Part shown: positions 32,094 through 61,434 of the stretch, piece by piece
Numbering within the stretch: position 1 is the stretch's first letter
Layout: the number at the start of each line of letters is the position of its first letter
Source of the DNA: an uncultured Anaerolineae bacterium
GTDB taxonomy: Bacteria; Chloroflexota; Anaerolineae; VGOG01
Direction: 5' to 3'
DNA: 64,000 bases
Assembly: GCA_964390805.1 (NCBI GenBank)
Contig: CAYMKL010000010.1
Coordinates: 12,158 to 76,157, forward strand
Notes under the pieces: generated by a model
Told to the model about the DNA's origin: nothing
Seen by the model: the letters and a program-made list of their open reading frames with translations, nothing else
The model's database searches: none
Translations under genes and position numbers: made by a program

Positions 32094-33185
32094 ATGAAGA
32101 ACGATTTCATGAGAAAGGAGCAAGAGTTGGTTGACGAACAGCAGGTACATCAAGCGTTACGAGAGGTAAAACATCCAGAGTCAGGCGGTAGTTTGATGGA
32201 ACTGGGCATGATCAGGGACATAAGGGTGGACGACAGGCAGGTGAGATTCACCGTCGTCCTGCCCTTCATGGACGTGCCCATCAAGGATCAGGTCGTGAGC
32301 GAAGCGCGGGCGGCGGTGGAGAAGCTGCCAGAGGTCAAGAGGGTAGCCATCGAGCTGGCCGAGATGACTCAGAAGGAGAGAGCCCACTTCATGTCGTTCG
32401 GCAGAGAGACCGGTTCGGCTGAGGGAGTGAACCGTGTCAAGCACGTCATCGCTGTGTTGAGCGGCAAGGGTGGAGTAGGCAAATCTACAGTGGCAGCACT
32501 TCTGACTGTTGCTTTGAGGAGGGAAGGCCATAGAGTGGGCCTGCTCGACGCCGACATCACCGGCCCCAGCATCCCCAAGATGTTCTTCCCCACGCAGAGG
32601 CATCCAGATAACAGCCCCCTGGGCATCCTGCCGGTGGAAAGCGAAACAGGCATTGAGGTCATGTCCATCAATCTGCTTCTCCCCAGCGAGGACCAGGCGG
32701 TCATCTGGCGGGGGCCGCTCATTGGCAAGGCCATTCAGCAGTTTTGGGGTGACGTATACTGGGGCGATCTGGATTACCTGGTCGTGGACCTTCCCCCCGG
32801 TACGGCCGATGCCGCGCTGACCGTCATGCAATCTATTCCTCTGGATGGTGTAGTTCTGGTCACCTCGCCCCAGGGGCTGGCGGGAATGGTAGTGCGTAAG
32901 GCGGCGCAGATGACTCAACACATGGGTACGCCCATCTTAGGGTTGGTGGAAAACATGAGCTACACCATTTGCCCCAAATGCGGGGAGCGCATCGAGATCT
33001 TCGGTCCCAGCAAGGCGGCAACTACAGCAGAGAAGTTCAACATGCCGTTTTTGGGCCGGCTGCCCCTCGATCCCGAGATCTCTAAACTCTGTGATGCCGG
33101 GATGGTTGAGAAATACCCAGCCGATACTTTCGCCCCCATTGCTCAAAAGGTAGTGGCTAACAGGGAAGCGAGAGCCGATAGATGA
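32094..33185 (+). CDS. apbC: Mrp/NBP35/ApbC-family Fe-S cluster carrier ATPase with N-terminal DUF59 domain
   Basis: N-terminal DUF59 'HPESGGSLMELGMIRDIRVD'. Deviant Walker A 'IAVLSGKGGVGKSTVAALL'. C-terminal 'CPKCGERIE'. Confidence 0.9.
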   Translation: MKNDFMRKEQELVDEQQVHQALREVKHPESGGSLMELGMIRDIRVDDRQVRFTVVLPFMDVPIKDQVVSEARAAVEKLPEVKRVAIELAEMTQKERAHFMSFGRETGSAEGVNRVKHVIAVLSGKGGVGKSTVAALLTVALRREGHRVGLLDADITGPSIPKMFFPTQRHPDNSPLGILPVESETGIEVMSINLLLPSEDQAVIWRGPLIGKAIQQFWGDVYWGDLDYLVVDLPPGTADAALTVMQSIPLDGVVLVTSPQGLAGMVVRKAAQMTQHMGTPILGLVENMSYTICPKCGERIEIFGPSKAATTAEKFNMPFLGRLPLDPEISKLCDAGMVEKYPADTFAPIAQKVVANREARADR

Positions 33186-33223
33186 AGATCTGCTGAAGGT
33201 AAAAAGCAAAGAAAACAGAGGAG

Positions 33224-33451
33224 ATGAAAGCGATGTTTCAACGATTATTCGGTCGTGGAGGCGGTCGTGGTGGAGGCCGCGGCCTGGGACACGGCGGAGG
33301 GCGGGGCCGCATGGGCGGCACCAAGGCTGGTGCGGGGCCCGACGGCTACTGCATCTGCCCCAACTGCGGACATAAGGCGCCACATCAGGTGGGTGTGCCC
33401 TGCTACCAAATGGACTGCCCCAAGTGTGGCACCAAGATGGTGAGGGGGTAA
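33224..33451 (+). CDS. small Gly/Arg-rich zinc-ribbon protein (paralog at 49206..49442)
   Basis: 'FGRGGGRGGGRGLGHGGGRGRMGG' followed by 'CICPNCGHKAPHQ...CPKCGTKM' (two CxxC). Confidence 0.6.
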   Translation: MKAMFQRLFGRGGGRGGGRGLGHGGGRGRMGGTKAGAGPDGYCICPNCGHKAPHQVGVPCYQMDCPKCGTKMVRG

Positions 33452-33454
33452 GCC

Positions 33455-34357
33455 ATGATCATCACTGTGGCTAGCGGTAAGGGAGGTACAGGAAAGACCA
33501 TGGTTGCGGTCAATCTGGCATTGGCTGTAGCATCTGGCCAGACAGCAAGCGAGATTGCTGAGAAGCCAGGCCGCTATGATGCCAGGATACTGTTACTGGA
33601 CTGCGACGTGGAGGCCCCCAATGATCATCTGTTCCTGAAACCGACATTCAAAGGGCAGGAGGAGGTGACGCTCCTGGCACCTGAGATCGTCTTGGACAAG
33701 TGCACTTACTGCGGGCGCTGTGCCGAGGCCTGCAACTATAACGCCCTCGCCGTGGTGAGAGGCCAGGTGCTCTTTTTCTCCGAGCTGTGTCACGGCTGTG
33801 GGGCCTGCGCGTTGGTGTGCCCTGAGGGGGCCATCCACGAGGTGCCGGAGGTGATTGGCCTCATCGAAGAGGGTGTAGTGTCCACCCCGCTGGCTGACCT
33901 CGACTTCGCCCATGGTATGCTGGAGATAGGTCGAGCTATCGCCCCGCCAGTTATCCGGCAGTTGAAGCGGCGCATCAACTCCGACCGGCTGGTGATCCTT
34001 GACGCCTCACCTGGCACCTCCTGCCCGGTGGTGGAGGCCATGAAGGGGGCCGACTTCGTGCTGCTGGTCACCGAGCCCACCCCCTTCGGCCTGCACGACC
34101 TGCGGCTGACGGTGGAGGTGGCCCGCGATGAGCTGGGCCTACCGGTGGGCGTGGTGATTAACCGCGACGGCATAGGCGATGAGAAGGTGGAGGAGTACTG
34201 CCAGTCGGAGGGGATCCCTATCCTGATGCGAATTCCCTTCGACCGTCGCATCGCCGAGGTCTACTCCGAGGGAGGGCTGGTCATCGAGGCCCTGCCTGAA
34301 TACAGGGAACGGTTCCGGGAACTCTATCGAAGGATTCGAGAAGAGGTGGACAAGTGA
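33455..34357 (+). CDS. MinD/ParA-superfamily P-loop ATPase with an inserted 2x[4Fe-4S] ferredoxin domain (COG1149-type)
   Basis: 'IITVASGKGGTGKTMVAVNLA'. Inserted 'CTYCGRCAEACNYNAL...CHGCGACALVCPEGAI'. Confidence 0.85.
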   Translation: MIITVASGKGGTGKTMVAVNLALAVASGQTASEIAEKPGRYDARILLLDCDVEAPNDHLFLKPTFKGQEEVTLLAPEIVLDKCTYCGRCAEACNYNALAVVRGQVLFFSELCHGCGACALVCPEGAIHEVPEVIGLIEEGVVSTPLADLDFAHGMLEIGRAIAPPVIRQLKRRINSDRLVILDASPGTSCPVVEAMKGADFVLLVTEPTPFGLHDLRLTVEVARDELGLPVGVVINRDGIGDEKVEEYCQSEGIPILMRIPFDRRIAEVYSEGGLVIEALPEYRERFRELYRRIREEVDK

Positions 34358-35232
34358 GACAAATCGTGATCCTGAGTGGTAAAGGAGGCACAGGCAAAAC
34401 GACAGTGACTGCGGCGCTGGCCCATCTGGCCTCGCAGGAAGCCTCCATCGTGCTGGCCGACGCCGACGTGGATGCGGCCAACCTGGAACTGGTGCTCTCG
34501 CCCCAGGTCCAGGAGGAGGGTGAGTTCATCGGTGGTGGGGTGGCGGTGATTGATGTGGAGCTGTGCACTGCCTGCGGGATCTGCCATGATGTCTGCCGCT
34601 TCGAGGCCATCGTCCCCGGCGACGAGGTGTACGCTGTGGATGACCTCGGCTGTGAGGGTTGCGGCGCTTGCGTATACGCCTGCCCGGTGGAGGCGATTGA
34701 GATGCAGGAGCAGTTGGACGGGAAGTGGTTCCGCTCCCAGGCCCGCTACGGTCCGTTGTTCCACGCCCATCTCTTCGCCGCGCGGGAGAACTCGGGCAAG
34801 CTGGTGACGCTGATCAAAAACGAGGCCCGTGATCTGGCCCCGGAACGGGGGGCTGACTACCTGCTGGTGGATGGCCCGCCGGGCATCGGCTGCCCGGTCA
34901 TCGCCGCCATCTCCGGCACGGACCTGACCCTCCTGGTCACCGAACCTACAGTGTCCGGGGCGCACGACCTGGAACGTATCGTAGGCGTGGCCCAGCACTT
35001 CGGAGTTCCAGCCGCGGTCTGCATCAACAAGTATGACCTGAACCTCGCCAAAACCGAGGAGATCGCCGCCTGGTGTGCTGCACAAGGGGTGCCGATCGTG
35101 GGAAGGATCCCTTTTGACCACGAGGTTACGCGGGCCATGGTGCAGGGAAAACCCATCACCGAACACGCCGATGGAGCGGTAGCTGAGGAGCTTCGACGGG
35201 TTTGGGCTTGGCTCAAGGCGAGGTTTGACTAA
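34354..35232 (+). CDS. second MinD-ferredoxin ATPase (COG1149-type), translationally coupled
   Basis: 'IVILSGKGGTGKTTVTAALA'. 'CTACGICHDVCRFEAI...CEGCGACVYACPVEAI'. Start overlaps the previous stop. Confidence 0.85.
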   Translation: MRQIVILSGKGGTGKTTVTAALAHLASQEASIVLADADVDAANLELVLSPQVQEEGEFIGGGVAVIDVELCTACGICHDVCRFEAIVPGDEVYAVDDLGCEGCGACVYACPVEAIEMQEQLDGKWFRSQARYGPLFHAHLFAARENSGKLVTLIKNEARDLAPERGADYLLVDGPPGIGCPVIAAISGTDLTLLVTEPTVSGAHDLERIVGVAQHFGVPAAVCINKYDLNLAKTEEIAAWCAAQGVPIVGRIPFDHEVTRAMVQGKPITEHADGAVAEELRRVWAWLKARFD

Positions 35233-35241
35233 GGGGAGCAA

Positions 35242-35898
35242 ATGGCGATCAAAGAGAAGGTGAACACGCTTCTTGAGGAGTTGCCCGATGGAGTAGAGTT
35301 AGTTGGCGCTGCTAAGGGCCGAACTGCCCGCGAGATCGAGGAGGCGATAGATGCCGGCTTGGAGATCGTTGGGGAGAACTATATCCAGGAGACCCTGCCA
35401 GTTCAAAACCGTGTGAGCAGAGATGTGGAATGGCATTTCATCGGGCATCTGCAGAGGAACAAGGTGAAGCAGGCGGTGGGGATATTCGATATGATAGAGA
35501 GCCTGGACTCCCTCCGGCTGGCGGAGGAGATAGACAGGAGATGCGAGAGGATCGACAAGGTGATGCCCGTGCTAGTAGAGGTAAACAGTGGCAGAGAGGA
35601 GCAGAAATTCGGGGTGTTGCCGGAAGATGTCGAAGAGCTTGTCAGGAAAGCCTCGACTCTTCCAAACATCAAGATAATGGGGCTGATGACCATGGGCCCT
35701 CGCTTCGGCAACCCTGAGGACTCGCGTCCCTATTTTATCAAGACAAGAGAGATTTTCGAAAAGATTAAGCGACTTAACTTGCCAAACGTTGAAATGAGGT
35801 ATCTTTCTATGGGTATGACAAATTCCTACCGCGTTGCCCTGGAGGAAGGGGCTAACATGTTACGGATAGGAACCAAGGTATTCGGAGAGAGGAGGTGA
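35242..35898 (+). CDS. yggS: YggS/PLPHP-family pyridoxal-phosphate-binding protein
   Basis: 'LVGAAKGRTAREIEEAIDAGLEIVGENYIQE...WHFIGHLQRNKVKQAV...MGLMTMGP'. Confidence 0.85.
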   Translation: MAIKEKVNTLLEELPDGVELVGAAKGRTAREIEEAIDAGLEIVGENYIQETLPVQNRVSRDVEWHFIGHLQRNKVKQAVGIFDMIESLDSLRLAEEIDRRCERIDKVMPVLVEVNSGREEQKFGVLPEDVEELVRKASTLPNIKIMGLMTMGPRFGNPEDSRPYFIKTREIFEKIKRLNLPNVEMRYLSMGMTNSYRVALEEGANMLRIGTKVFGERR

Positions 35899-35903
35899 GC
35901 GAT

Positions 35904-36191
35904 ATGCCAGCTTTTGATGGAACCGGGCCTCGGGGCCTCGGCCCCATGACCGGCCACGGGGAGGGGTACTGCGCCATCGCGTTCCCCCCGCCCGGAACGG
36001 GGAAGGCGCCCTACGGATACGCGGGACTGGCGGGCACGCCGGTGCAGCCTGCCCTGGCGGGCAGTCCAGAGACGGGGGTTCCCTACGCTACGCCACCCGT
36101 TACCGCAACACCCTTTGTGCCTTTGTCTGCCCCACGGTTTGGCCGGGGATTGGGACGGCGCCGGGGTAGAGGTAGAGGAAGATGGCGATAG
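35904..36191 (+). CDS. DUF5320-like Gly/Pro-rich small protein (N-terminal MPxFDGTGP motif)
   Basis: 'MPAFDGTGPRGLGPMTGHGEGYCAIAF...RFGRGLGRRRGRGRGRWR'. RBS GAGGAGG upstream. Confidence 0.6.
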   Translation: MPAFDGTGPRGLGPMTGHGEGYCAIAFPPPGTGKAPYGYAGLAGTPVQPALAGSPETGVPYATPPVTATPFVPLSAPRFGRGLGRRRGRGRGRWR

Positions 36192-36244
36192 TGTGAAGTC
36201 GCCCACAATTATCTAAACTGATGTATTGGAAGGAGGTGAACAAG

Positions 36245-36566
36245 ATGCCAGGCTTTGATGGAACAGGACCGGGTGGTATGGGCCCCATGACTGGTGGCGG
36301 ACGGGGAAGGTGCAATCCGTACAGCCCCTTCTATCTATGCCGGATATGGCCCTTACCCCGCTTCCTATCCCTATCAGCCCTACACTCCGACGGGTACAGG
36401 CTACGCTCCTGTGGCTGGATGGCCAACTGGGGGCTATGGCTTCCAACCCTACGGAGGCTATCCCGGGCCTTACGGCTTTGGGCGTCCCCGATGGGGCATG
36501 CGAGGCTTCGGGGGCCGGGGCATGGGCTGGGGAGAGCGAGGTCGCGGCCGGGGACGTTGGTGGTAG
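36245..36566 (+). pseudogene. second DUF5320-like gene, apparently frameshifted near 36300-36310
   Basis: Frame 2 gives 'MPGFDGTGPGGMGPMTGGGRG' then nonsense. Frame 0 (GTG at 36294) gives the homologous remainder 'GEGAIRTAPSIYAGYGPYP...GFGGRGMGWGERGRGRGRWW'. The shift lies in the G-rich run 'ggcggacggggaagg'. Confidence 0.5.
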
Positions 36567-36628
36567 CAACTATTGACCACCTGACCAAGGACCAACTGAC
36601 TAACTGACCAAGAAGGAGGTGAATTTTA

Positions 36629-36991
36629 ATGGGAGGACACGGGCATCGCTGGATGTACTATGCCACCGGGCTTCCGGGCTGGATGCGCTTTGGCTATAGC
36701 CCAGGCTGGGTGGGCCGCAGTCCTACGGGGCTAGGCCCCTGCGCCGAGTACCTCACGACGGGACAGTGGCCCACGCCACAGATGGCCGCCGCCTGGGGGG
36801 GCGAACCATGGGCTTACGGCGCGCCGGCGCCCGGCGCCTGGCAGGCCGGACCCTGGGCTTATGGCGCTCCAGCGCCCGGCGCGATGCCGCGCGAGCAGGA
36901 GCTGCAGATGCTGAGGGATAACGCCGAAGCACTGAAGGCTCAGCTCGATCAGATCAGCGCGCGCATCGAGGAACTGGAAAAGGAGACATAG
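36629..36991 (+). CDS. Gly/Pro/Trp-rich protein with a C-terminal coiled-coil motif shared with the NifX-like proteins downstream (DUF5320 C-terminal-like)
   Basis: '...PREQELQMLRDNAEALKAQLDQISARIEELEKET'. Compare the tails of the 37138 and 37782 genes. Confidence 0.5.
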   Translation: MGGHGHRWMYYATGLPGWMRFGYSPGWVGRSPTGLGPCAEYLTTGQWPTPQMAAAWGGEPWAYGAPAPGAWQAGPWAYGAPAPGAMPREQELQMLRDNAEALKAQLDQISARIEELEKET

Positions 36992-37137
36992 CGATGGATA
37001 GCAGGGGGATAAAATTCGGGGCGGGTGAACAGAATCGGAAGACTCGCCACCCGCCCCGAGCCCCCAACCTGCACGGTGGTCTGACAACCGGCAGGAGAGG
37101 TACACCTAATCATACCGTCAATAAGGAGGAATTGCAA

Positions 37138-37779
37138 ATGAAGATCGTCGTCACATCCGATGGCGCGGACCTGGACGCGCCGGCCAGCCCAATCTTTGGG
37201 CGGTGCTCCACCTACATCTTCGTTAATACGGAGACCATGGAATTTGAGGTCGTTTCCAACCCGGCCATGTCCGCTCCTGGTGGGGCGGGAATCCAGGCGG
37301 CCCAATTTGTCATCGAGCAAGGCGCACAGGCAGTACTGACCGGCAACATGGGCCCCAATGCCTACAACGTTTTCCAGGCTGCCGGCGTACCCATCTACCT
37401 GCTCACGGGCGGGACAGTGAGAGAGGCAGTGGAGGCGTACAAGGCGGGAAGGCTGCAATCCGCCGCTGACGCCAGCGTCCAGGCGCACGCCGGGATGGGT
37501 ATGGGTCTTGGCATGGGCCGAGGGATGGGCATGGGCCGTGGCATGGGCCGGGGTATGGGCCGTGGCATGGGCATGGGCCAAGGCGCTTACGGAACAACGC
37601 CTCCGCCGCAGCCCGCGCCACCCGCTTCCCGCCCTTCGACAAGCCCTTCGTCAGGCTCAGGACCCAGCTCAGGACAGCGCGAGGAGGAGGTCATGGCCTT
37701 GAAGCAAACGGCCAGTGACTTGCGTCAGCAGTTGGCTCAGATCATGGAACGGCTCGATAAGCTGGAAAAGGAGAGCTAA
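37138..37779 (+). CDS. NifX/NafY/NifB-C-terminal-like (dinitrogenase FeMo-cofactor-binding fold, PF02579-like) protein with Gly/Met-rich repeat and coiled-coil tail
   Basis: 'MKIVVTSDGADLDAPASPIFGRCSTYIFVNTE...GAGIQAAQFVIEQGAQAVLTGNMGPNAYNVFQAAGVPIY'. Then '(GMGxGR)n' and '...LRQQLAQIMERLDKLEKES'. Confidence 0.7.
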   Translation: MKIVVTSDGADLDAPASPIFGRCSTYIFVNTETMEFEVVSNPAMSAPGGAGIQAAQFVIEQGAQAVLTGNMGPNAYNVFQAAGVPIYLLTGGTVREAVEAYKAGRLQSAADASVQAHAGMGMGLGMGRGMGMGRGMGRGMGRGMGMGQGAYGTTPPPQPAPPASRPSTSPSSGSGPSSGQREEEVMALKQTASDLRQQLAQIMERLDKLEKES

Positions 37780-37781
37780 TA

Positions 37782-38288
37782 ATGCGCATTGCGATATCAG
37801 CCGATGACAACAATGGCCTCGATAGCGTGGTTAGCCCTCACTTCGGTCGCTGCCCGCACTACATCCTGGCGGACCTGGACGGTCAGGAGATCCAGGCCGT
37901 CCAGGCTGTGGATAATCCCTACCACGGCCGGCACGCGCCGGGGCAGGTGCCGGGCTTCATCCACAGCCAGGGAGTGCACGTGATGCTCACTGGCGGGATG
38001 GGAGGGCGAGCCATCGGCTTCTTTGAGCAGTATGGCATCGAGGCCGTGACCGGCGCGTCGGGCACGGTGCGCTATGCCCTGGAACGCTACCTGGGCGGCC
38101 AACTGAAGGGTGTCGAACCCTGTCACGAGAGCATTGAGCACGGCCACGGAGAGCTTGACCTGAGCGCCGCTTCGCTTGCGGTCGAAGGGTACGAGCAGGA
38201 CGAAGTAGGCCGCCTGCGCGAGGAAGCCGAGATGCTGCGTCGCCAACTGGGCGAGGTGACGGCTCGGCTGGATAAGCTAGGGAAATAG
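37782..38288 (+). CDS. second NifX/NafY-like (PF02579-like) protein with coiled-coil tail
   Basis: 'MRIAISADDNNGLDSVVSPHFGRCPHYILADLDG...HVMLTGGMGGRAIGFFEQYGIEAV'. C-terminal 'LREEAEMLRRQLGEVTARLDKLGK'. Confidence 0.7.
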   Translation: MRIAISADDNNGLDSVVSPHFGRCPHYILADLDGQEIQAVQAVDNPYHGRHAPGQVPGFIHSQGVHVMLTGGMGGRAIGFFEQYGIEAVTGASGTVRYALERYLGGQLKGVEPCHESIEHGHGELDLSAASLAVEGYEQDEVGRLREEAEMLRRQLGEVTARLDKLGK

Positions 38289-38412
38289 CGCAAGGCAGGA
38301 TGTACCGCATCGCCGATCTGAAAATTACTCACCTGCTCCCGCTAGACCCTAGTCCAGCGGCCTCCTGTTGCCCGAGGAATATCGAAGGGTCTATAGCCAG
38401 AAGGAAATTGAT

Positions 38413-38985
38413 ATGTCTGGAAAAGGAATTGATGTCAGGACGATAGCCATCACCGGCATCATGATCGCAGTGGTGGCTGTATTCACCCGATCTATCATAG
38501 TCCCCATCGGCACCGGGTTTTTCAACTTCTCCGATGTGGCTATCTACTTCGCCGCCTTCGCCTTCGGGCCCTGGATCGGGTTTGTAGCGGGAGGGGTAGG
38601 GGCTGCTCTGGCGGACATCAGCCTGGGTTACAGCCAGTTCGCTCTCCTGACCTTCTTCGCTCATGGCCTGGAGGGCTTGGTAGCCGGTTACCTGGGCTGG
38701 GAGGGGAGCCGGATCGCCCGCTTCGTGGGCAAGGGAGATGTCCGTTTGCGGATGTTTCTGGGCTGGCTGGCGGGAACGGTGGTGATGGTGGGACTCTATT
38801 TCGTGGGGGAGGCTGCCGTGCCGGCCATGTGGGGAGGTCTGCCCCAGGCTCTCACCGAGTGGCCTTTCAACTTGCTGCAGAACGTGGCTGGCGGCATCGT
38901 TGGGATTCCTCTGGTGCTGGCTGTGCGCAGGGCCTATCCCCCCATCACTCGGATGGGCTTGGGGGCAACCTGGAAGGAGCGCTAG
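38413..38985 (+). CDS. ECF-transporter S-component-like polytopic membrane protein
   Basis: About 190 aa with 5-6 TM helices. 'FNFSDVAIYFAAFAFGPWIGFVAGGVGAALADI'. Confidence 0.5.
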   Translation: MSGKGIDVRTIAITGIMIAVVAVFTRSIIVPIGTGFFNFSDVAIYFAAFAFGPWIGFVAGGVGAALADISLGYSQFALLTFFAHGLEGLVAGYLGWEGSRIARFVGKGDVRLRMFLGWLAGTVVMVGLYFVGEAAVPAMWGGLPQALTEWPFNLLQNVAGGIVGIPLVLAVRRAYPPITRMGLGATWKER

Positions 38986-38998
38986 AGGTGATAAACCA

Positions 38999-39418
38999 AT
39001 GCTGACCATCGAGTTGAACCGCTGCGACGGCTGCAGCGCCTGCGTGGAGGTCTGTCCTGAAGGAGCCATCTCTTTGGTCAATGGAGTGGCGAGGATAGAT
39101 TCAGGCTCCTGCACCGAGTGTGAGGCCTGCGTCCAGGCTTGCCCCACCGGGGCGATCCGGGTGGCTAGGCCGATCGCCGTCAGGGAGGAGGCGACGACTG
39201 CTGTGGCAGAGAGGCTCCGGCCCAGCACACTGGCAACGCTGGCCGGCGCGGCCCTCAGCTTCATAGGAAGCCAGCTCTTGCCCCGCGCAGCCGATGCCAT
39301 CGTCAACGCCCTGGACAAGCGACTCAGCGAAGAGCCTGCAGCCGAATCCCGCGAAGCAGTGCCGAGCACAGGGAAGCAGGGTAGTCGTCGCCACCGAAGA
39401 CGTGGAGGGCGAGGATGA
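38999..39418 (+). CDS. 2x[4Fe-4S] ferredoxin-domain protein with a disordered Arg-rich C-terminal tail (paralog at 45176..45727)
   Basis: 'CDGCSACVEVCPEGAI...CTECEACVQACPTGAI'. '...AADAIVNALDKRL...RRHRRRGGRG'. Confidence 0.75.
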   Translation: MLTIELNRCDGCSACVEVCPEGAISLVNGVARIDSGSCTECEACVQACPTGAIRVARPIAVREEATTAVAERLRPSTLATLAGAALSFIGSQLLPRAADAIVNALDKRLSEEPAAESREAVPSTGKQGSRRHRRRGGRG

Positions 39419-40164
39419 TCGTTCTCAAATCCTCCCGCGAGTTGGCGCTCATGCGCCAGGCGGGCCGCATCGTGGCCCAGGTCCACGAGCGCTTCCGGGA
39501 GGTGGTGCGCCCAGGGATCACCACCGCAGATCTGGAGAAAGTCGCCTCCCGTATCATCGAGCAAGAGGGGGCGATTCCCTCTTTCAAGGGATACCGAGGC
39601 TTTCCAGCCGCCATCTGCGCCTCGATCAACGAGGAGATAGTGCACGGCATCCCCAGCCCCGAGCGGGTGCTGAAGGAAGGCGACATCATCAGCCTCGATG
39701 TGGGCACTATCTACAAAGGTTATCAGGGGGACGCGGCTATCACCCTGCCGGTGGGCGAGGTGGATGAGGAGGTTCGACGCCTTTTGCAGGTGACCCAAGG
39801 CGCGCTGAAGGTGGGCATCGCCCAATCCCGCGCCGGCAAGCGGCTGGGCGATATCTCCGCAGCTATCCAGCGCTATGCAGAGGTCAATGGCTTCAACGTG
39901 GTGCGGGAGTACACGGGCCACGGCATCGGTCAGGAGATGCACGAGGATCCGCAGATTCCCAACTTCGGGCGACCCAATCGGGGGCCGCGCTTGCGGCCGG
40001 GCATGACCTTCGCCCTGGAGCCGATGGTCATGACAGGGGACTGGCGGACGAGGACGCTGTCCAATAACTGGACGGTGGTCACCGCCGACGGCTCGCTTTC
40101 CGCTCACTTCGAACACACCATAGCCGTTACCAACGGCGAGCCGGAGATCCTCACGCAATTGTAA
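39415..40164 (+). CDS. map: type I methionine aminopeptidase
   Basis: 'IVLKSSRELALMRQAGRIVAQVH...ICASINEEIVHGIP...ISLDVGTIYKGYQGD...EYTGHGIGQEMHEDPQIPN'. Confidence 0.95.
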   Translation: MIVLKSSRELALMRQAGRIVAQVHERFREVVRPGITTADLEKVASRIIEQEGAIPSFKGYRGFPAAICASINEEIVHGIPSPERVLKEGDIISLDVGTIYKGYQGDAAITLPVGEVDEEVRRLLQVTQGALKVGIAQSRAGKRLGDISAAIQRYAEVNGFNVVREYTGHGIGQEMHEDPQIPNFGRPNRGPRLRPGMTFALEPMVMTGDWRTRTLSNNWTVVTADGSLSAHFEHTIAVTNGEPEILTQL

Positions 40165-40176
40165 GGAGGAAAGGAT

Positions 40177-40887
40177 TTGAGAACGGTTGGCATCGTAGGA
40201 TACAAGGACAGCGGCAAGACCACGTTGACCCACGCCCTGGTCCGCGAGTTGACCCGGCGGGGCCACGAGGTGGCCGTGATCAAGCACACGTCCCACCGCC
40301 TGGACCTCCCAGGGAAGGACACCGCTACGCTGGGAGAAGCCGTCAGCCGGGTGGGGTTCATCTCGCCTCAGGAGTCGGGGGTCTTCTGGAAGAAGCCGCT
40401 GAGCCTGGAGAACATCATCCCCTATCTGGAGGCGGACATCCTCCTCATTGAGGGCTTCAAGGCGGAGAAGACCTTCCCCAAAATCATCTGCCTACGGGGA
40501 GAGCTGGATGATCAGGATCTCTTCGACGGCCTGGCCATCTGCGCCGTGGGCCCCGCTTCTGAGGCGTGCGAACTCGACGTCCCCCACTTGAGCCTGGACG
40601 AGATAGGCAAAATCGCCGACCTGGTAGAGGAGAAAGCGTTCAAGCTGCCCAATCTCGACTGTGGAAGCTGCGGGTTCGAGACTTGTTACGAGTTAGCTCG
40701 CGAGATTGTCAAGGGTAACAGGGATGTGGAGGACTGCGTCTCCCTGCAGCCGATGACGGAGGTGAGAATAGATGGGGAGCTGATGCCCATGAATCCCTTT
40801 ATCTCCGACATTGTGAGAGGCACTATCCTGGGGATGCTGTCACCGCTCAAAGGATTTAAGAAGGGAAAGATCGAGATCAGGATCTGA
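40177..40887 (+). CDS. mobB: molybdopterin-guanine dinucleotide biosynthesis protein MobB with a C-terminal Cys-containing extension
   Basis: P-loop 'VGIVGYKDSGKTTL', '...VAVIKHTSH'. C-terminal 'LDCGSCGFETCYELA'. Confidence 0.8.
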   Translation: MRTVGIVGYKDSGKTTLTHALVRELTRRGHEVAVIKHTSHRLDLPGKDTATLGEAVSRVGFISPQESGVFWKKPLSLENIIPYLEADILLIEGFKAEKTFPKIICLRGELDDQDLFDGLAICAVGPASEACELDVPHLSLDEIGKIADLVEEKAFKLPNLDCGSCGFETCYELAREIVKGNRDVEDCVSLQPMTEVRIDGELMPMNPFISDIVRGTILGMLSPLKGFKKGKIEIRI

Positions 40888-54579: not shown

Positions 54580-55218
54580 TTGGAAAAGCTTCGCTGTGCT
54601 ATGTGTGGAGTACGGGTGTGCAGTGCCGAGCCCGGCACCGAGAAATATCCGCCTTTCTGCCCCATGCCTACGGAAACAGCCGTCCTCTCCAGAGCAGAGG
54701 AGGCATATCTGGGCCAGGACGATCTGCGAGAATTCGCCCTGGCTGCGGCTCGCACCGAGGCGGCAGGATATTGCAAGGAGCCCCGGGTGGAAGAGATCAT
54801 GAACTTCGCCCGGCGCATCGGAGCCCAGCGGTTGGGCATCGCCAGTTGCGTCGGCCTCCTCCGAGAGGCCCGCATCTTGCAGCAGATCCTGGAGGCCAAT
54901 GGGTTCGAGGTGGACAGCGTCTGCTGTAAAGTGGGCTCCATTGACAAGGAGAAAATCGGTCTGAGAGACGAAGAGAAGATCCGTCCTGGGCAGTATGAAT
55001 CCCTCTGCAACCCTGTGGGACAGGCCATGTTACTGAACAAAGCCGGCACAGAGTTGAATATCGTCGTGGGGCTATGTGTCGGCCACGACAGTCTCTTCTT
55101 CAAACACTCCGATGCGCCGGTCACAGTGCTGGTGGCCAAGGACCGCGTTACGGGCCACAACCCCGTGGCTGCTCTTTACACCAGCCATTCCTACTACAAG
55201 CGGCTGCGAGGGCAGTGA
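54580..55218 (+). CDS. DUF1847-family Cys-rich protein
   Basis: 'MEKLRCAMCGVRVC...YPPFCPMP ... CVGLL ... CVGHDSLFFKHSD'. Confidence 0.55.
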   Translation: MEKLRCAMCGVRVCSAEPGTEKYPPFCPMPTETAVLSRAEEAYLGQDDLREFALAAARTEAAGYCKEPRVEEIMNFARRIGAQRLGIASCVGLLREARILQQILEANGFEVDSVCCKVGSIDKEKIGLRDEEKIRPGQYESLCNPVGQAMLLNKAGTELNIVVGLCVGHDSLFFKHSDAPVTVLVAKDRVTGHNPVAALYTSHSYYKRLRGQ

Positions 55219-55260
55219 TGATTCCAAGGCAACACCACGAATTGCTGAGGGAGGCATAAG

Positions 55261-55464
55261 ATGTGTCAGGCAACAGTGTATCTGGCCGGCGACGGCCAGG
55301 AAGAGGAAATCATGCGGGACGTAATCCTGCTGGAGCCAGTGGCGAACGGCGTTCGGCTGGCTACCTTTTTTGAGGAGCCGCAGACGGTACGGGCGCGCAT
55401 CCAGCGGATTGATTTTCTGAAGCATACCGTCACCTTGGTGCCAGAGGTGGAGGGGGAGGGGTAA
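55261..55464 (+). CDS. cooT: CooT-family small nickel-binding protein
   Basis: Starts 'MC' (Cys2). 'MCQATVYLAGDGQEEEIMRDVILLEPVANGVRLATFFEEPQTVRARIQRIDFLKHTVTL'. 67 aa. Confidence 0.6.
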   Translation: MCQATVYLAGDGQEEEIMRDVILLEPVANGVRLATFFEEPQTVRARIQRIDFLKHTVTLVPEVEGEG

Positions 55465-55465
55465 G

Positions 55466-55681
55466 ATGGCGGACATGACCGATCTACAAAAACTGCGGAT
55501 ACTATTGCCACACTGGATAGAGCACAACGCCGAGCACGCAGCCGAGTTCCGGGAGTGGGCAGAGCGAGCCCGCGCTGCGGGACGGGAAGGCGTGGCTTCG
55601 GACATCGGCCTGGCCGCTGAAGAGATGGAATGGGTCAACGGGGAACTGGCGGCGGCTCTAGAGAAGCTGGGCCAGGAATGA
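55466..55681 (+). CDS. hypothetical small protein
   Basis: 'LPHWIEHNAEHAAEFREWAERA'. No family recognised. Confidence 0.3.
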   Translation: MADMTDLQKLRILLPHWIEHNAEHAAEFREWAERARAAGREGVASDIGLAAEEMEWVNGELAAALEKLGQE

Positions 55682-56673
55682 CGAAATACGTTTACGGCCC
55701 GGTCCCTTCGCGGCGGCTGGGTCAGTCACTTGGAGTGGATCCCATCCCCTTCAAGACCTGCAACTACAACTGCGTCTATTGCCAGTTGGGTCGCACCACG
55801 CCCCTCACCAACGAACGCAGAGACTTCTTTCCTCGAGAGGAGATTCTGGCCCAGGTGCAGGACGCGCTGGAAATCCACCAGCCCGGCGAGGTGGACTACG
55901 TGACCTTCGTCGGCCAGGGGGAGCCCACGCTGTGCGCCGGCCTGGGGTGGCTCATTTGCCAGGTCAAGGCCCTCACCCACATCCCGGTGGCCGTCCTCAC
56001 CAACGGCGCACTCCTCTTCCAGCCAGAGGTGCGGGAGGAACTGGCTGCTGCCGACCTGGTGATGCCCACCCTCGACGCGGCCAACCAGGAGGCTTTCCGC
56101 AGGATCAACCGCCCCTGGCCCCGCTTCCGCATAGCCGAGATCATCGAGGGGATGGCGGCCTTCCGGACGATGTTCACAGGCCAGCTCTGGATAGAGGTGA
56201 TGCTGGTCAGGGGGCTGAACGACGACGAGGCGACGCTTTTGGGCATCCGCGATGCCCTGGTCCGCATCCGCCCTGACCGAGTGCAGATCAATGTGCCCGT
56301 CCGTCCGCCGGCCGAGCCCTGGGTGGAGATCCCCAACGACGAGGCCGTCGAGCGTGCCACGGCCATCCTGGGCGAGGCGGCCGAAGTCGTCGCTCCCTAC
56401 GAGGGGCACTTCGGCCTCTCCGGCTTCGCGGACGTGGCCGAGGCGATACTGGCCATCATCCGTCGCCACCCGATGCGCCAGCGGCGGCTGGTAGAGACGC
56501 TGGACAGGTGGGCGCCGGGCGAGGTGGAGGGGACGCTGGCCCGGTTGGAGTCTGGCGGCCAGGCCCGAAAGCATCTTTACCGGAGTGAAGTTTTCTGGGA
56601 ATACGCTGGCAGAGTTTTCGGCGAACAGCGTCCTGAGCCCGCCGAAGGAAGGAGAGTGCACCGTGAACGTTGA
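55678..56673 (+). CDS. radical SAM domain protein
   Basis: CX3CX2C 'CNYNCVYC'. 'GEPTL' glycine-rich motif. Confidence 0.85.
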   Translation: MTKYVYGPVPSRRLGQSLGVDPIPFKTCNYNCVYCQLGRTTPLTNERRDFFPREEILAQVQDALEIHQPGEVDYVTFVGQGEPTLCAGLGWLICQVKALTHIPVAVLTNGALLFQPEVREELAAADLVMPTLDAANQEAFRRINRPWPRFRIAEIIEGMAAFRTMFTGQLWIEVMLVRGLNDDEATLLGIRDALVRIRPDRVQINVPVRPPAEPWVEIPNDEAVERATAILGEAAEVVAPYEGHFGLSGFADVAEAILAIIRRHPMRQRRLVETLDRWAPGEVEGTLARLESGGQARKHLYRSEVFWEYAGRVFGEQRPEPAEGRRVHRER

Positions 56674-57853
56674 ACGCTGGGGTTGGTATTCTATAATGGT
56701 CAACGTCGCTCTGGGGCTGATCAACCTGGTCATCGCCAGAGCCTCCGGCAGCCTGGCTGTGGAGGCAGAGATGGTCCACAACCTGGTGGACCTGCTGACG
56801 GCGGTGGCGGTGCTCATCGGGCTGAGACTCTCGACGCGCAAGTCCAAGGATTTTCCCTACGGCCTGTACAAACTGGAGAACGTGGTGGCCGTGGTGCTGG
56901 CGGTGATGATCTTCTTCACCGCTTACGAGATCGCCCGGGATGCCCTCTTCACGCCGGCGCGCCAGGCCACGGTGGATCCCTGGATGCTGGTGGGGCTGGT
57001 GGTGGCGACGGTCATCCCGCTGGTTTTCAGTCACTTCGAGTTGCGCGCTGGGAAGGCGGCCAATTCCCCCTCCCTCATCGCCGACGCCAAGGAGTACCGC
57101 GCCCACGTCTTCACCACGGGCATCGTCTTTGCCGCGCTGTTGGCCCAGCGGTTCAATCTCCCGCTGGACCGCATCGCGGCGTTGGTCATTGTGGTTGCCA
57201 TCGCCAAGACGGGCTGGGAGTTGCTCTCTGATGGGATGCGCGTGCTGCTCGATGCCTCGCTGGACGCCGATACCGTCCTCCAAATCCGGGACATCATCAC
57301 TGCCGAGCCGACGGTGGCCGAGCTCAAGTGGGCCACCGGGCGCAATGCTGGCCGCTTTCGCTTCGTGGAGGCCGAGGTCGCCCTGCGAGTTCGCGAGCTG
57401 GAGCAGGCGGAGGCCACCACCCGGCGCATTGAGGAGCGAATCCGAGAGGCCGTGCCCTATGTGGACCGGGTGCTGATCCACGCCGAACCGATGGAGCGGA
57501 CGCACCTGCGCTACGCCGCCCCGTTGAGCGACACAGCGGGCACGCTGAGCGAGCATTTGGGCGAGGCTCCCTACTTCGCCCTGGTCACAGTGCGCCTGAC
57601 CGATGACACCATCGAGGAACAGCAAATCGTGGCCAATCCCCACCAGGCAGTGGAGAAAGCCAAGGGCATCCGGGTGGCCGAGTGGCTGGTGGGTCAGAAC
57701 GTGGATGTAGTACTGCTGAAGGAGAGCCTGCGTGGCAAAGGACCGGTCTACGTCTTCGGCGACGCCGGGGTGGAGATGCAGGAAACCACCGCGACGACGC
57801 TGGAGGAGGCGCTGACGGAAACGACCCAGAGCCGAGAAAGGATCAAGAGGTAG
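56663..57853 (+). CDS. cation diffusion facilitator (CDF) transporter fused to a C-terminal NifX/NafY-like (PF02579-like) domain
   Basis: CDF TM core 'SLAVEAEMVHNLVDLLTAVAVLIGLRLS...'. C-terminal 'SDTAGTLSEHLGEAPYFALVTV...IRVAEWLVGQNVDVVLL...VFGDAGV' resembles the 37138 and 37782 proteins. Confidence 0.7.
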   Translation: MNVERWGWYSIMVNVALGLINLVIARASGSLAVEAEMVHNLVDLLTAVAVLIGLRLSTRKSKDFPYGLYKLENVVAVVLAVMIFFTAYEIARDALFTPARQATVDPWMLVGLVVATVIPLVFSHFELRAGKAANSPSLIADAKEYRAHVFTTGIVFAALLAQRFNLPLDRIAALVIVVAIAKTGWELLSDGMRVLLDASLDADTVLQIRDIITAEPTVAELKWATGRNAGRFRFVEAEVALRVRELEQAEATTRRIEERIREAVPYVDRVLIHAEPMERTHLRYAAPLSDTAGTLSEHLGEAPYFALVTVRLTDDTIEEQQIVANPHQAVEKAKGIRVAEWLVGQNVDVVLLKESLRGKGPVYVFGDAGVEMQETTATTLEEALTETTQSRERIKR

Positions 57854-58047: not shown

Positions 58048-58737
58048 ATGGGGGAGGGAAGGATACTGGTCGTTGAGGACGAGCCGAGCATCCGTGAGGT
58101 GGTTAGCCTCTACCTGCGGCGCGCCGGCTACCAGGTCACCGCCGTCGAAGACGGGCAGGCGGCGCTGGAGAGCCTCGCCCGCCAGACGCCCGACCTGATC
58201 GTGCTGGACCTGATGCTGCCCAAGGTGGACGGGCTGGAGATCACCCGTTGGCTGAGGGAGCGGGGCGATACGCCGATCATCATGCTCACCGCCCGCCGCG
58301 AGGAGCACGACCGCATCGCCGGACTGGAGATGGGCGCCGATGACTATGTCGTCAAGCCCTTCAGTCCCCAGGAACTGGTCAGCCGGGTGCGGGCCGTGCT
58401 GCGCCGGGCCCAGAGAGGCGGGATGACCAGCACCGAGCAGCCGCTGGTCTATGGTGACCTGGGCATAGACCCCCAGACCCGCCTGGTGACGGTCGGCGGT
58501 GAGGAAAAAACGCTCACCGCCAAAGAGTTCGACCTGCTGTGGACGTTGGCCCGCCACCCACGCCAGGTGTTCACCCGCGATCAACTGCTCGACCTGGTGT
58601 GGGGCCTGGCCGAGTACATTGACCCCAGCACCGTGACGGTGCACGTGCGCCGCCTTCGGGAGAAGATCGAGGCCGACCCCAGCAACCCGGTCCACATCCA
58701 GACGGTGTGGGGCGTTGGCTACAAGTTTGAGCCGTGA
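58048..58737 (+). CDS. OmpR-family response regulator
   Basis: 'RILVVEDEPSIRE...LIVLDLMLPKVDG...PIIMLTAR'. Winged helix '...VHVRRLREKIE...IQTVWGVGYKF'. Confidence 0.9.
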   Translation: MGEGRILVVEDEPSIREVVSLYLRRAGYQVTAVEDGQAALESLARQTPDLIVLDLMLPKVDGLEITRWLRERGDTPIIMLTARREEHDRIAGLEMGADDYVVKPFSPQELVSRVRAVLRRAQRGGMTSTEQPLVYGDLGIDPQTRLVTVGGEEKTLTAKEFDLLWTLARHPRQVFTRDQLLDLVWGLAEYIDPSTVTVHVRRLREKIEADPSNPVHIQTVWGVGYKFEP

Positions 58738-58757: not shown

Positions 58758-60002
58758 ATGGAAGTTCAGCGTTCGTTCGGTCCGCACCTGCGCTTTGTTG
58801 GCGCCGTGGCCCTGACGATGGCGACGGCGCTGGGTTTCTTTTTCCTGCTCATGCGTCCGCCGATGCGGGACGTGGGCCTCGTGGCTCTCTTTCTAACGGT
58901 CACGGCGGCCATCTCGATAGCCGCTGGCTACGGGGCCTACCGCCTGGGCTGGGTTCATCGCTCGCCGCACATCAGTTGGACACTGCTGGGGGGCTATGCA
59001 CTGGCCAGCCTGTTGACCTTCCTCAACGTCTGGATCACGGCACGGCTGATGTTCGTCAGCGAGCACGACCTGCTCCTGGCGACGGTGCTGCTGCTTTTTG
59101 CCGGGGGAATCGCCATGTCGGTGGGCTACTTCCTGTCGCTGGCCCTGATTGACCGCATCGTCATACTCGACCGGGTGGCGAAAAAGGTCGCCCAGGGGGA
59201 TCTGGGTGTGCGCGTGCCGGTCATCGGCAACGACGAGATGGCCAGCCTAGCCCGCACCTTCAACGAGATGGCCGCCCGGCTCCAGGCCGCCGACGAGAGG
59301 CAGCGCGAACTGGACCGGCTGCGCCGCAACCTTATCGCCTGGGCTGGGCACGACCTGCGCACGCCGCTGGCCTCGATCCACGCCATCGTCGAGGCCCTGG
59401 CCGACGGCGTGGTGGACGATCCCGAGACTGTGGACCGCTACCTGGGCACCGCCAGCCGCGAGATTGACTCGCTCTCGCGGCTGATAGACGACCTGTTCGA
59501 GCTGGCCCAACTGGAGGCGGGCGGCCTGCGGCTGGAATTGCGACCCAATTCGCTCTCCGACCTGCTGTCGGACACGCTGGAGAGCTTTTCCGAGCTGGCG
59601 GTACAGCAGGGGATCACGCTGGGGGGGCGTGCCGACTCCGATGTGGACCCGGTGATGATGGATGCCCGGCAAATCGGGCGGGTGCTGTCGAACCTGCTGG
59701 GCAATGCGCTGCGGCACACGCCCTCTGGCGGGGCCGTGTACGCCCAGGCGACCAGGACAGCGGAGGGGGTGCAGGTAGAGGTCCGCGACACTGGCGAGGG
59801 CATTGATGCCGCAGACCTGCCCTACGTCTTTGAGCACTTTTATCGGGGCGACAAGTCGCGCAGCCGGGCCACCGGCGGTGCGGGCCTGGGCCTGGCCATC
59901 GCCAAGGGGATCGTCGAGGCCCACGACGGTTGGATCGGTCTGGAAAGCCCGCCCGGCGGGGGAACGCGGTTCTTTTTCACCCTGCCAGGGACAGCGACGT
60001 AA
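58758..60002 (+). CDS. sensor histidine kinase (TM-HAMP-HisKA-HATPase)
   Basis: H-box 'IAWAGHDLRTPLASI'. N-box 'LSNLLGNALRHT'. G-boxes 'DTGEGI' and 'GGAGLGLAI'. Confidence 0.9.
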   Translation: MEVQRSFGPHLRFVGAVALTMATALGFFFLLMRPPMRDVGLVALFLTVTAAISIAAGYGAYRLGWVHRSPHISWTLLGGYALASLLTFLNVWITARLMFVSEHDLLLATVLLLFAGGIAMSVGYFLSLALIDRIVILDRVAKKVAQGDLGVRVPVIGNDEMASLARTFNEMAARLQAADERQRELDRLRRNLIAWAGHDLRTPLASIHAIVEALADGVVDDPETVDRYLGTASREIDSLSRLIDDLFELAQLEAGGLRLELRPNSLSDLLSDTLESFSELAVQQGITLGGRADSDVDPVMMDARQIGRVLSNLLGNALRHTPSGGAVYAQATRTAEGVQVEVRDTGEGIDAADLPYVFEHFYRGDKSRSRATGGAGLGLAIAKGIVEAHDGWIGLESPPGGGTRFFFTLPGTAT

Positions 60003-60084
60003 TCATCTTGTAAGGATTGGATAATCTATTCTTAAGGATTGGGTGGTATCATAGAGACCAGATTTGGCGTGTGAGTAAAAGGAG

Positions 60085-61350
60085 ATGATAGATATGGCGG
60101 ATAGTCGCATCTTGATTATCGGAGGACTCGTTGTCCTCCTGATCGGTGGCGCGTTGGTTTGGACTCTTTTCAAGCCCGCGCCAGGGAGCAGTACGATGGA
60201 ATGTGAAGAGACAGGCGGAGGCGAGGTTTGCGCGAGTTCCTCCGGTGGGGACAACGGGCCCCGGATGGACTTTCAAAAGCCACCCCAGAGCGAATTGAGG
60301 ACAATGCTCACTCCCTTGCAGTACCATGTCACGCAGGAAAACGGGACGGAGCGCCCCTTCCAGAACGAGTACTGGGACAACCACCGGGAAGGCATCTACG
60401 TTGATGTGGTCTCGGGAGAGCCTCTCTTCAGTTCCCTGGACAAGTTCGACTCTGGCACTGGCTGGCCCAGTTTCACCACGCCGCTGGAGCCGGGGAACAT
60501 CGTGGAGGTGGCGGACAGGGCGCTGGGCATGGTCAGGATAGAGGTGAGAAGCCATCACGGGGACTCCCACCTGGGGCACGTCTTCCGCGACGGCCCGCCG
60601 CCCACCGGCTTGCGCTACTGCATCAACTCCGCGGCCCTGCGCTTCATCCCCAAGGAGGATTTGGAGAAAGAGGGCTACGGTGAATACCTGTCACCTCTCG
60701 CAATCCTCCCCACAGACACCGCCGCGCCCACCAACACGGCGACGGCGACGTTCGCGATGGGCTGATTCTGGGGACCCGACTCCCAGTTTGGGAGTCTCCC
60801 CGGTGTGGTACGGACCCGCGTCGGGTACGCTGGTGGCACCACCGAGAACCCTACGTATCACAATCTGGGCGGCCACTCCGAGACGATTCAGATCGAGTAC
60901 GATCCGACCCGGATTTCGTACCAGGAGTTGCTGGACGTCTTTTGGGCCGGTCACGCCCCGACCCGACCGGCTTGGTCGCGGCAATACGCCTCCCTCATCT
61001 TTTACCACGACGAGGAGCAGCGGCGGCTGGCCCAGGCATCGAAGGAGCGGTATGAAGCCCAGTGTGATTGTCAGGTTTATACCGAGATCATCCCGGCCAC
61101 CGCGTTCTACCTGGCCGAGGACTATCACCAAAAGTACCGGTTGCGACAGTCGTCCACCTTTATGAGCGAGTTTGCGACCATGTACCCCGACTCGGCCGAT
61201 TTCGTCAACTCGACGGCGGCGGCGCGGGTGAACGGCTACCTGGGCGGGCATGGCACGCTCGCCGACCTGCAGGCCGAGATTGAGGACCTGGGATTGTCTC
61301 CCGCGGTGCGAGAAAAGCTGCTGGACATCGTCCGAGGACGCCAGCGGTGA
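60085..61350 (+). CDS. msrBA: bifunctional peptide-methionine sulfoxide reductase MsrB-MsrA fusion; MsrA active-site residue encoded by in-frame TGA (candidate selenocysteine)
   Basis: MsrB 'GTGWPSF...RYCINSAAL'. Then '[18 protein letters not shown]...[11 protein letters not shown]' where MsrA has GCFWG. Both ORFs are in frame 1; TGA at 60763-60765. Confidence 0.75.
60770..60801 (+). ncRNA. candidate bacterial SECIS hairpin starting 5 nt after the TGA
   Basis: ggggaCCCgactccc-agttt-gggagtctcccc: a 7-bp perfect apical stem plus a 5-bp lower stem with a 3-nt bulge. Confidence 0.55.
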
Positions 61351-61391: not shown

Positions 61392-61434
61392 CAGCTCCGT
61401 AGCCGTGGCATGAATCGCCACGGCTACGGAGCTG
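61392..61434. terminator. 17-bp perfect stem-loop downstream of msrBA (cagctccgtagccgtgg-catgaatcg-ccacggctacggagctg)
   Basis: Perfect inverted repeat. No U-tract, so it could be a terminator-like or REP-like RNA structure. Confidence 0.5.

Follow-up and report, generated by a model that had tools for sequence, protein, structure and literature searches.

An MsrB-MsrA fusion with a predicted membrane anchor and a predicted selenocysteine at the MsrA active site in an Anaerolineae bacterium

Selenocysteine (Sec)-containing methionine sulfoxide reductase A (MsrA) has been among the listed bacterial selenoprotein families since 2006 (PMC1794560) and is also included in current reviews (PMC13188914, PMC9312934). 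The enzyme from Clostridium (Alkaliphilus) oremlandii, CoMsrA, is a 1-Cys-type selenoprotein whose activity exceeds that of the Cys form 20-fold; it requires a C-terminal helical domain for an intact active site and is recycled by glutaredoxin, not by thioredoxin (PMC4333827). The present analysis concerns a stretch of 64,000 nucleotides from an uncultured Anaerolineae bacterium (contig CAYMKL010000010.1, positions 12,158 to 76,157; hereafter the window), which contains a related gene, msrBA, interrupted by an in-frame TGA. The segment 60094-61350 very probably represents one gene for a 418-residue bifunctional, membrane-anchored methionine sulfoxide reductase (Msr), whose MsrA catalytic residue is Sec, specified by UGA 60763-60765 and a selenocysteine insertion sequence (SECIS) hairpin. 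Gene structure, conservation of the TGA and a conserved, covarying hairpin support this conclusion, while decoding dependent on SelB and catalysis through a selenenic acid are predicted from sequence. All coordinates are positions in the window.

CoMsrA has been described in detail (PDB 4LWJ-4LWM, 4U66, 4W8C; PMC4333827, PMC4479559), and its structures 4U66 and 4LWJ-4LWM are the best PDB matches of the window MsrA, which aligns with 7C13 as well. A comparison with the Alkaliphilus Sec-MsrA had been proposed in a preliminary description of this DNA, made from the sequence alone; the resulting alignment covers the full length (E 5e-60), extends to residue 206 of 209 with the helical domain included, and places the TGA opposite Cys16 of the CoMsrA structures, which is natively Sec16. 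The G-U-FWG position is common to the two proteins, which are also alike in keeping the active-site residues and, probably, in having no conserved resolving Cys. However, CoMsrA is a free-standing protein of 209 residues without a signal sequence, recycled by glutaredoxin, whereas the window MsrA is fused behind an MsrB domain and a membrane anchor and contains a CxC motif (QCDCQ) that is not conserved in its relatives.

Fused and anchored Msr proteins are also known. The bifunctional MsrB/A proteins of family NF004042 (e.g. P0035, P0038 and P0043) share with the window protein the B-A order, an N-terminal hydrophobic or signal segment and an MsrB domain about 55% identical; they differ in having a classical Cys MsrA (GCFWG...GRTGHAEVV), without helical domain and without TGA. 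The window protein scores 287.7 bits with the NF004042 equivalog model, under the cut-off of 330 and over residues 66-355 only; the domain order is the same, but the MsrA subtype is another. Halanaerobium-type MsrA-MsrB fusions (P0001-P0034) have an MsrA of the subtype seen in the window, helical-domain region included, together with a signal peptide and an MsrB partner, but their order is A-B and their catalytic residue is Cys (GCFWG). The best full-length protein matches are Cys-containing proteins of these two kinds, the Halanaerobium-type MsrA-MsrB and the classical MsrB-MsrA fusions. Finally, the anchored, surface-exposed streptococcal MsrAB proteins (S. pneumoniae SpMsrAB2 and the secreted S. 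gordonii MsrAB; PMC3914529, PMC7034828) carry two Msr domains behind a single N-terminal transmembrane segment or signal, as predicted for the window protein, which would likewise act in envelope repair, but they have the A-B order and Cys at both catalytic positions. The streptococcal operons encode a two-component system and the reductants CcdA and thioredoxin-like lipoproteins (PMC3914529, PMC7034828); in S. gordonii, msrAB follows the two-component system in the operon, and msrBA likewise comes after one here. Sec-MsrA, SECIS-type decoding, MsrB/A fusions and anchored Msr proteins are each already known, and their combination is a modest architectural variant.

Gene structure and protein domains

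The features of msrBA, all on the + strand, are the following.

60079-60084 and 60094-60096, + strand: ribosome-binding site AAGGAG and likely start codon ATG (sequence; public gene calls of 223 aa)
60094-61350, + strand: complete recoded gene msrBA, 418 codons plus stop, with Sec predicted at codon 224
60109-60171, + strand: N-terminal hydrophobic segment, predicted signal anchor (residues 6-26, 21 aa; 17-residue mean Kyte-Doolittle value 2.93)
60307-60651, + strand: MsrB (SelR) domain (PF01641, residues 75-189, E 5e-49; TIGR00357, 202 bits, cut-off 113)
60742-61158, + strand: MsrA catalytic domain (PF01625, residues 220-358, E 2e-44; TIGR00401, 133.7 bits, cut-off 108.1)
60763-60765, + strand: in-frame TGA, predicted Sec codon, at the MsrA catalytic position G-U-FWG (sequence and alignments)
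60768-60803, + strand: SECIS-type hairpin inside the coding sequence (folding, covariation, covariance model)
61150-61347, + strand: C-terminal helical domain of the C. oremlandii selenoprotein-MsrA type (PF20939, residues 375-406, 24.7 bits, cut-off 23.7)

The open reading frame (ORF) for the anchor and MsrB, 60085-60765 (226 aa), closes at TGA 60763-60765, and the same frame stays open until TGA 61348-61350. Translation probably starts at ATG 60094, 9 nt past AAGGAG, since the ribosome-binding site directly abuts the first ATG at 60085 and public gene calls also use 60094; from this start the anchor and MsrB occupy 60094-60762, corresponding to 223 aa. In the public annotation msrBA is given as two proteins, of 223 aa and 181 aa, and both halves are separately recorded in NCBI. 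The preliminary description had recognised an MsrB ORF ending exactly where MsrA has its catalytic Cys, an MsrA domain continuing in the same frame past the TGA, and an N-terminal membrane anchor on the fusion. The first point is borne out by the sequence, by Pfam and by the alignment to Cys16 of CoMsrA; the second by a complete MsrA running through to 61350; and the third is supported by Pfam for the domains and by hydropathy for the predicted anchor.

TGA is an ordinary stop codon in this organism, and the commonest one, since it terminates 23 of the 54 Pfam-supported genes of the window. An alternative genetic code (4 or 25) was rejected on this ground; the internal TGA is therefore a special case within the standard code, which calls for a local explanation.

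The Pfam domain scan was run with Cys substituted at the TGA. In the MsrB domain, the catalytic Cys codon is TGC 60619-60621, within RYCINS (60613-60630); Thr takes the place of the resolving Cys (GTGWPSF), and the zinc-binding CxxC pairs are absent. MsrB is, from these residues, of the 1-Cys type. In the MsrA domain, alignments reveal equivalents of CoMsrA Tyr47, Glu55, Gln89, Tyr90, His137 and Tyr140, and residues Y41, E49, Q83, Y84, H131 and Y134 are invariant in alignment A1. The CxC motif QCDCQ is probably non-essential, because only some relatives have it: the corresponding site reads RCGCR in the fused orthologue L004 and RGDRR in the fused orthologue L084. The two cysteines of the linker and the CxC were considered as general resolving cysteines and rejected, as they are not conserved in these two orthologues. 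Both domains thus appear to belong to the 1-Cys/1-Sec types without a conserved resolving Cys, and a selenenic acid intermediate would consequently have to be reduced by an external thiol partner. Similar N-terminal anchors are also found in L004, L084 and a further fusion, L166.

Predicted decoding of the in-frame TGA

DNA-level scans of genomes and metagenomes retrieved 105 distinct homologous loci with TGA at the catalytic codon, and only about 12 members of the same subfamily with TGT or TGC. In the genome table, which holds the best 80 loci, TGA occurs in 72 rows, including the window and its three identical copies (L001-L003), or 68 distinct loci once these four are removed, and TGT or TGC in 3 loci. 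The TGA loci belong to more than 10 phyla, among them Chloroflexota, Nitrospirota, Desulfobacterota, Actinomycetota, Planctomycetota, Acidobacteriota, Spirochaetota, Synergistota and Bacillota, and one of them is from the cultured Desulforamulus aeronauticus DSM 10349; in every one of them the TGA is followed in frame by FWGPD/E. The possibility, raised in the preliminary description, that orthologues or reads might show TGC or TGT at this codon is made unlikely by these counts and by three independent Logan assemblies, in which the TGA and its flanking sequence are identical. The same description had called Sec-MsrA known but rare in bacteria: known it is, but among the relatives retrieved Sec is the rule in this MsrA subfamily.

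The hairpin begins immediately 3' of the TGA. Its lower stem (60768-60774/60797-60803) has 7 bp and is separated by a CCC bulge (60775-60777) from an upper stem (60778-60785/60789-60796) of seven G-C or A-U pairs plus a closing A-U, topped by the apical loop GUU (60786-60788). A GC-rich hairpin 5 nt past the TGA, consistent with a bacterial SECIS (bSECIS), had been noticed from the sequence; it is real, the 5-bp lower stem reported at first being the inner 5 bp of the 7-bp stem. The published bSECIS consensus indicates a loop of 3-9 nt having a G within its first two nucleotides, an upper stem of 4-16 bp, a distance of 16-37 nt from the UGA and a minimum free energy of -7.5 kcal/mol or lower (PMC13188914). 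The window hairpin agrees with all four constraints, with a GUU loop (or a 5-nt AGUUU whose ends are able to pair) opening on G then U, an upper stem of 7-8 bp, a spacing of 19-20 nt and -24 kcal/mol. When folded alone, at this energy, it has z = -3.70, and none of 200 shuffled sequences is equally stable.

Comparative analysis, based on a gapless alignment of 68 TGA-bearing sequences, is more informative. The loop G24-U25-U26 is invariant in all 68, and compensatory changes are found at pairs 18-32 (CG 41, UA 7, UG 7, AU 5), 19-31 (UA 43, GC 14) and 23-27 (GC 52, AU 6). The covariation score is 0.158, compared with 0.099 in shuffled alignments; it is reached by 0 of 500 shuffles and exceeds all slid controls. 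Wobble positions are similarly constrained: third-codon-position entropy is 0-0.43 bit within the hairpin core versus 1.6-2.0 bit outside, and the codons used inside the hairpin are CGG for Arg (50/51), GGG for Gly (65/68) and UCC for Ser (46/46), whereas a few codons downstream Arg uses six codons and Gly four. The lower stem is less conserved, with 69% of cells paired. This pattern of substitutions indicates that the hairpin is under RNA-level selection.

The hairpin also distinguishes the TGA forms from the Cys forms. The former (n=99) keep on average 5.56 of 6 core pairs with -10.7 kcal/mol, the latter (n=12) 2.5 of 6 with -3.1 kcal/mol (Mann-Whitney p ~1e-8 to 1e-10, ignoring phylogeny). 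Moreover, when a covariance model is trained on 66 sequences that include neither the window nor L004, it finds a single match in the window, at 60763-60816 (75.2 bits, E 5.7e-15), with all 15 pairs standard. The suggestion that this region be searched with such a model has therefore yielded a unique hit, and the likeness to a bacterial SECIS has held, the published model being matched by a structure that is conserved and covarying in TGA forms only.

A side observation concerns the protein encoded by this segment. The SECIS stem (columns 18-19/31-32 of alignment A2, window 60780-60781/60793-60794) forces covariation of amino acids in the active-site segment: D-S-R-F-G-S (GAC UCC ... AGU) alternates with D-A-R-F-G-Q/L (GAU GCC ... 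CAG/CUC), with pairs 18-32 and 19-31 kept in both cases.

According to the proposed mechanism, the mRNA would fold into the SECIS hairpin 60768-60803 immediately 3' of UGA 60763-60765, and the GUU apical loop, which lies some 20 nt away from the UGA, would bring in SelB loaded with Sec-tRNA(Sec). The ribosome would then read the UGA as Sec, which would become the MsrA catalytic residue. The predicted product consists of an N-terminal anchor, a 1-Cys MsrB, a short linker and a CoMsrA-type MsrA with its C-terminal helical domain; catalysis would proceed via a selenenic acid intermediate reduced by an external thiol partner.

Some results weigh against a membrane-anchored selenoprotein. Pfam and NCBIfam scans of 65 window ORFs and searches of the Logan contigs extending both ends revealed no selA, selB or selD in the 64-kb window or in the ~2-7 kb that these contigs add; tRNA-Sec was likewise absent from both, and an ARAGORN scan of the window detected no tRNA at all. 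Rfam, searched with gathering as well as permissive thresholds, gave no match to a SECIS family, only chance hits. The hairpin has a z of only -1.35 in a context of 76 nt, unexceptional for DNA with 60% G+C, and the contrast between TGA and Cys forms, uncorrected for phylogeny, includes just 12 Cys forms. As for the anchor, its topology is deduced from hydropathy and from analogy with relatives, and its flanking charges are near neutral; furthermore, Pfam and NCBIfam scans found no thioredoxin-like or CcdA/DsbD gene among the 65 larger ORFs of the window. Since thermodynamics by itself is weak evidence in the sequence context, it is the comparative evidence that lifts the hairpin above chance.

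In general, read-through of a stop codon can be promoted by a stable hairpin located just 3' of it. Together with the lack of Sec machinery in the window and its short extensions, this leaves room for a reading in which the hairpin is a mere stimulator and the UGA is read through as an amino acid other than Sec, such as Trp, Cys or Arg, through a near-cognate or suppressor tRNA or a tRNA(Sec)-like species charged with Cys. Such decoding is nevertheless unlikely. An MsrA with Trp or Arg as its catalytic residue would be inactive, and the hairpin displays specific bSECIS features, namely G-U in the apical loop, within an invariant GUU, and a spacing in the range of 16-37 nt (PMC13188914). The nearest characterised homologue is a proven selenoprotein, with the 20-fold advantage over its Cys form mentioned above (PMC4333827). 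In addition, a tRNA-Sec gene is found near the homologous gene in two genomes, at 5.5 kb from the Sec-MsrA homologue in L017 (15423-15520) and at 8 kb in L025 (847-2799); in L025 the tRNA is flanked by genes of selenium metabolism, coding for a selenium metabolism-associated LysR regulator (303 bits, cut-off 250) and YedF (180 bits, cut-off 110). Chloroflexota are themselves known users of Sec (PMC1794560, PMC13326102).

Termination at the TGA, as assumed in the public annotation, would result in an anchored MsrB and a separate, N-terminally truncated MsrA starting from GTG 60805. Gene callers give exactly this split into 223 aa and 181 aa, and msrB and msrA are truly separate genes in loci L168 and L169. 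However, the catalytic codon of the separate MsrA gene in L168 is itself an in-frame TGA, translation from 60805 would give a protein devoid of the GUFWG active site and of the fold's first strand, and no ribosome-binding site precedes this GTG. The coding sequence is also constrained across the TGA, with dN/dS (the ratio of non-synonymous to synonymous substitution rates) of 0.15-0.25 both 5' and 3' of it, in comparison with L004 (83% identity) and L084 (79%). The 13 codons from the TGA to the next possible start are conserved in frame in the 105 distinct loci and display no amino-acid change with respect to these two orthologues, synonymous change being reduced as well. A true stop is on these grounds very unlikely. 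The closest MsrA relatives in the protein search (60-83% identity) are nearly all ORFs of about 180 aa with the same first residues, V/M-[VI]RTRVGY, a hallmark of gene callers halting at the TGA. Five proteins in public collections (P0151, P0157, P0165, P0167 and P0208) read GWFWG at the MsrA active site; they are almost certainly cases of a Sec TGA rendered as Trp by gene callers using code 4.

That the locus is a pseudogene or an assembly error, with a TGC or TGT mutated or misread as TGA, may be practically dismissed: a single-base change would suffice and a related locus (L013) is frameshifted near the codon, but the sequence is identical in the three assemblies, the TGA is kept across orthologues at a synonymous divergence (dS) of 0.36-0.64 and far beyond, with purifying selection downstream, and the hairpin co-occurs with it. 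In L013, a metagenome-assembled genome (MAG) of Anaerolineae, the frameshift lies right at the TGA region, around 5120-5260 (...LCDGLILGPRDSQFG...), and it is probably an assembly or indel error and not a different gene structure.

If the TGA of msrBA is a Sec codon, the public annotation of this gene and of at least a hundred relatives is faulty, as it reports an "MsrB" and a truncated, catalytically dead "MsrA", or a Trp in place of the TGA (GWFWG). With the Sec codon recognised, a single functional enzyme is recovered, and this Anaerolineales-like organism can be counted among the users of selenium. In its Sec form, this MsrA subtype would be widespread in phyla of anaerobic sediment and groundwater, frequently in linkage or fusion with MsrB and with export signals. 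The MsrA SECIS also offers a clean case of an RNA structure that constrains codon choice, and even amino-acid choice (Ser/Ser covarying with Ala/Gln), in a conserved active-site segment. Current understanding is not overturned by these findings.

A screen of the window for other selenoprotein genes, based on pairs of ORFs separated by an in-frame TGA, returned 97 pairs, among which only msrBA is convincing; the rest are adjacent genes or off-frame noise.

Fusion, probable cellular location and surroundings of msrBA

In-frame MsrB-(TGA)-MsrA fusions are present in five distinct sequences: the window, L004 (an Anaerolineales MAG, CAZMOT01), L084, L166 (NCBI MAG GCA_964573415.1, CAZNKM01) and L088, the last being a more distant fusion with a twin-arginine leader (SRRSFLRR) and a zinc-type MsrB. 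In a sixth contig, P0144, the two called genes are separated by the same 39-nt gap. In L168 and L169, msrB and Sec-msrA are adjacent yet separate, each with its own anchor, and an unfused msrB lies just upstream of the TGA-containing gene in 15 loci and downstream in 5. Because of these unfused neighbours, the fusion seems to be the product of a recent joining of an msrB-msrA(Sec) operon into one gene, and from the sequences it would have arisen at least twice.

The unfused arrangement can be followed in L168 at 9125-10546, and likewise in L169: an anchored msrB with a genuine TGA stop is followed in the same frame by an anchored Sec-msrA with its own catalytic in-frame TGA. Directly downstream of the L168 pair is a gene for a 699-aa Thioredox_DsbH/Thioredoxin_7 protein.

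A strongly hydrophobic N-terminal segment is encoded 5' of the catalytic TGA in 67 of 96 TGA-bearing members (~70%; L004-L118), often followed by a lipobox-like Cys. An RR motif is present in 16 TGA-bearing members (e.g. NRRSFMKLLG); ahead of the active site there is a conserved (I/V)PPID motif. The frequency of hydrophobic leaders, many of them with lipobox-like or twin-arginine (Tat) motifs, suggests that, in contrast to the cytosolic enzyme of C. oremlandii, most of the TGA-bearing family functions outside the cytoplasm. By analogy, the window enzyme is probably located on the outer face of the cytoplasmic membrane, where it would repair both the S- and the R-sulfoxides of methionine in envelope proteins.

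The immediate surroundings of msrBA contain the following features.

58048-58737, + strand: OmpR-family response regulator, directly upstream of msrBA (called gene, Pfam/NCBIfam)
58758-60002, + strand: HAMP/HisKA sensor kinase, directly upstream of msrBA (called gene, Pfam/NCBIfam)
60000-60020 and 60022-60042, + strand: two 21-nt direct repeats (TAATCATCTTGTAAGGATTGG and TAATCTATTCTTAAGGATTGG; 22-bp spacing) in the gap of 82-91 nt between the histidine-kinase gene and msrBA
61392-61434, + strand: perfect 18-bp inverted repeat with a 7-nt loop and no T-run, 42 nt past the msrBA stop

The adjacent two-component system might regulate msrBA, and this proximity is a faint indication. All-against-all clustering of the neighbours in 99 loci yielded no conserved redox partner; it gave a loose association with genes for receiver-domain and kinase proteins in 22, few of which are response regulator-histidine kinase pairs directly upstream, and the link to a two-component system is not conserved in the nearest relatives of the window msrBA. 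The core 10-mer of the direct repeats, TAAGGATTGG, has exact matches only at these two sites in the 64 kb, and the repeats might serve the adjacent OmpR-type response regulator as a binding site. The terminator scan detected no canonical terminator at 61392-61434; the inverted repeat is possibly a terminator or an mRNA-stabilising hairpin.

A joint reading of these observations can be put forward tentatively, as a possibility that falls somewhat short of an even chance. The CoMsrA-type Sec-MsrA would form a mainly extracytoplasmic family, and the window protein would be a cell-surface bifunctional selenoenzyme, fused from two separately anchored neighbours whose unfused state is seen in L168. 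The enzyme would be recycled by an extracytoplasmic reductant, given that both domains lack a resolving Cys and that the gene has no linked CcdA or thioredoxin partner, and the adjacent two-component system would switch it on via the TAAGGATTGG repeats.

Other features of the window

Elsewhere in the window, a 655-aa ORF on the minus strand (38329-40296) was considered and rejected, since it is noise antisense to genuine genes of the plus strand. A module of about 7 kb is duplicated in tandem at 1014-8042 and 8074-14593, and the region 14656-30622 carries further multihaem cytochromes and a third FeS-NrfD pair. A cluster of genes for the handling of Fe-S centres and metalloclusters spans 32094-38288 and 54580-57853. 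The content of the duplicated module and of the cluster is as follows.

1014-8042 and 8074-14593: in each copy, a molybdopterin oxidoreductase (772/769 aa), a 4Fe-4S protein (229/229), NrfD (430/445), a Band-7/SPFH protein (265/260) and a multihaem or c-type cytochrome (369/363)
32094-38288 and 54580-57853: a NUBPL/ParA-type P-loop protein, two CbiA-ferredoxin fusions, three DUF5320 proteins, two NifX/NifB-like Nitro_FeMo-Co proteins, DUF1847, CooT, a radical SAM protein and a cation-efflux-Nitro_FeMo-Co fusion

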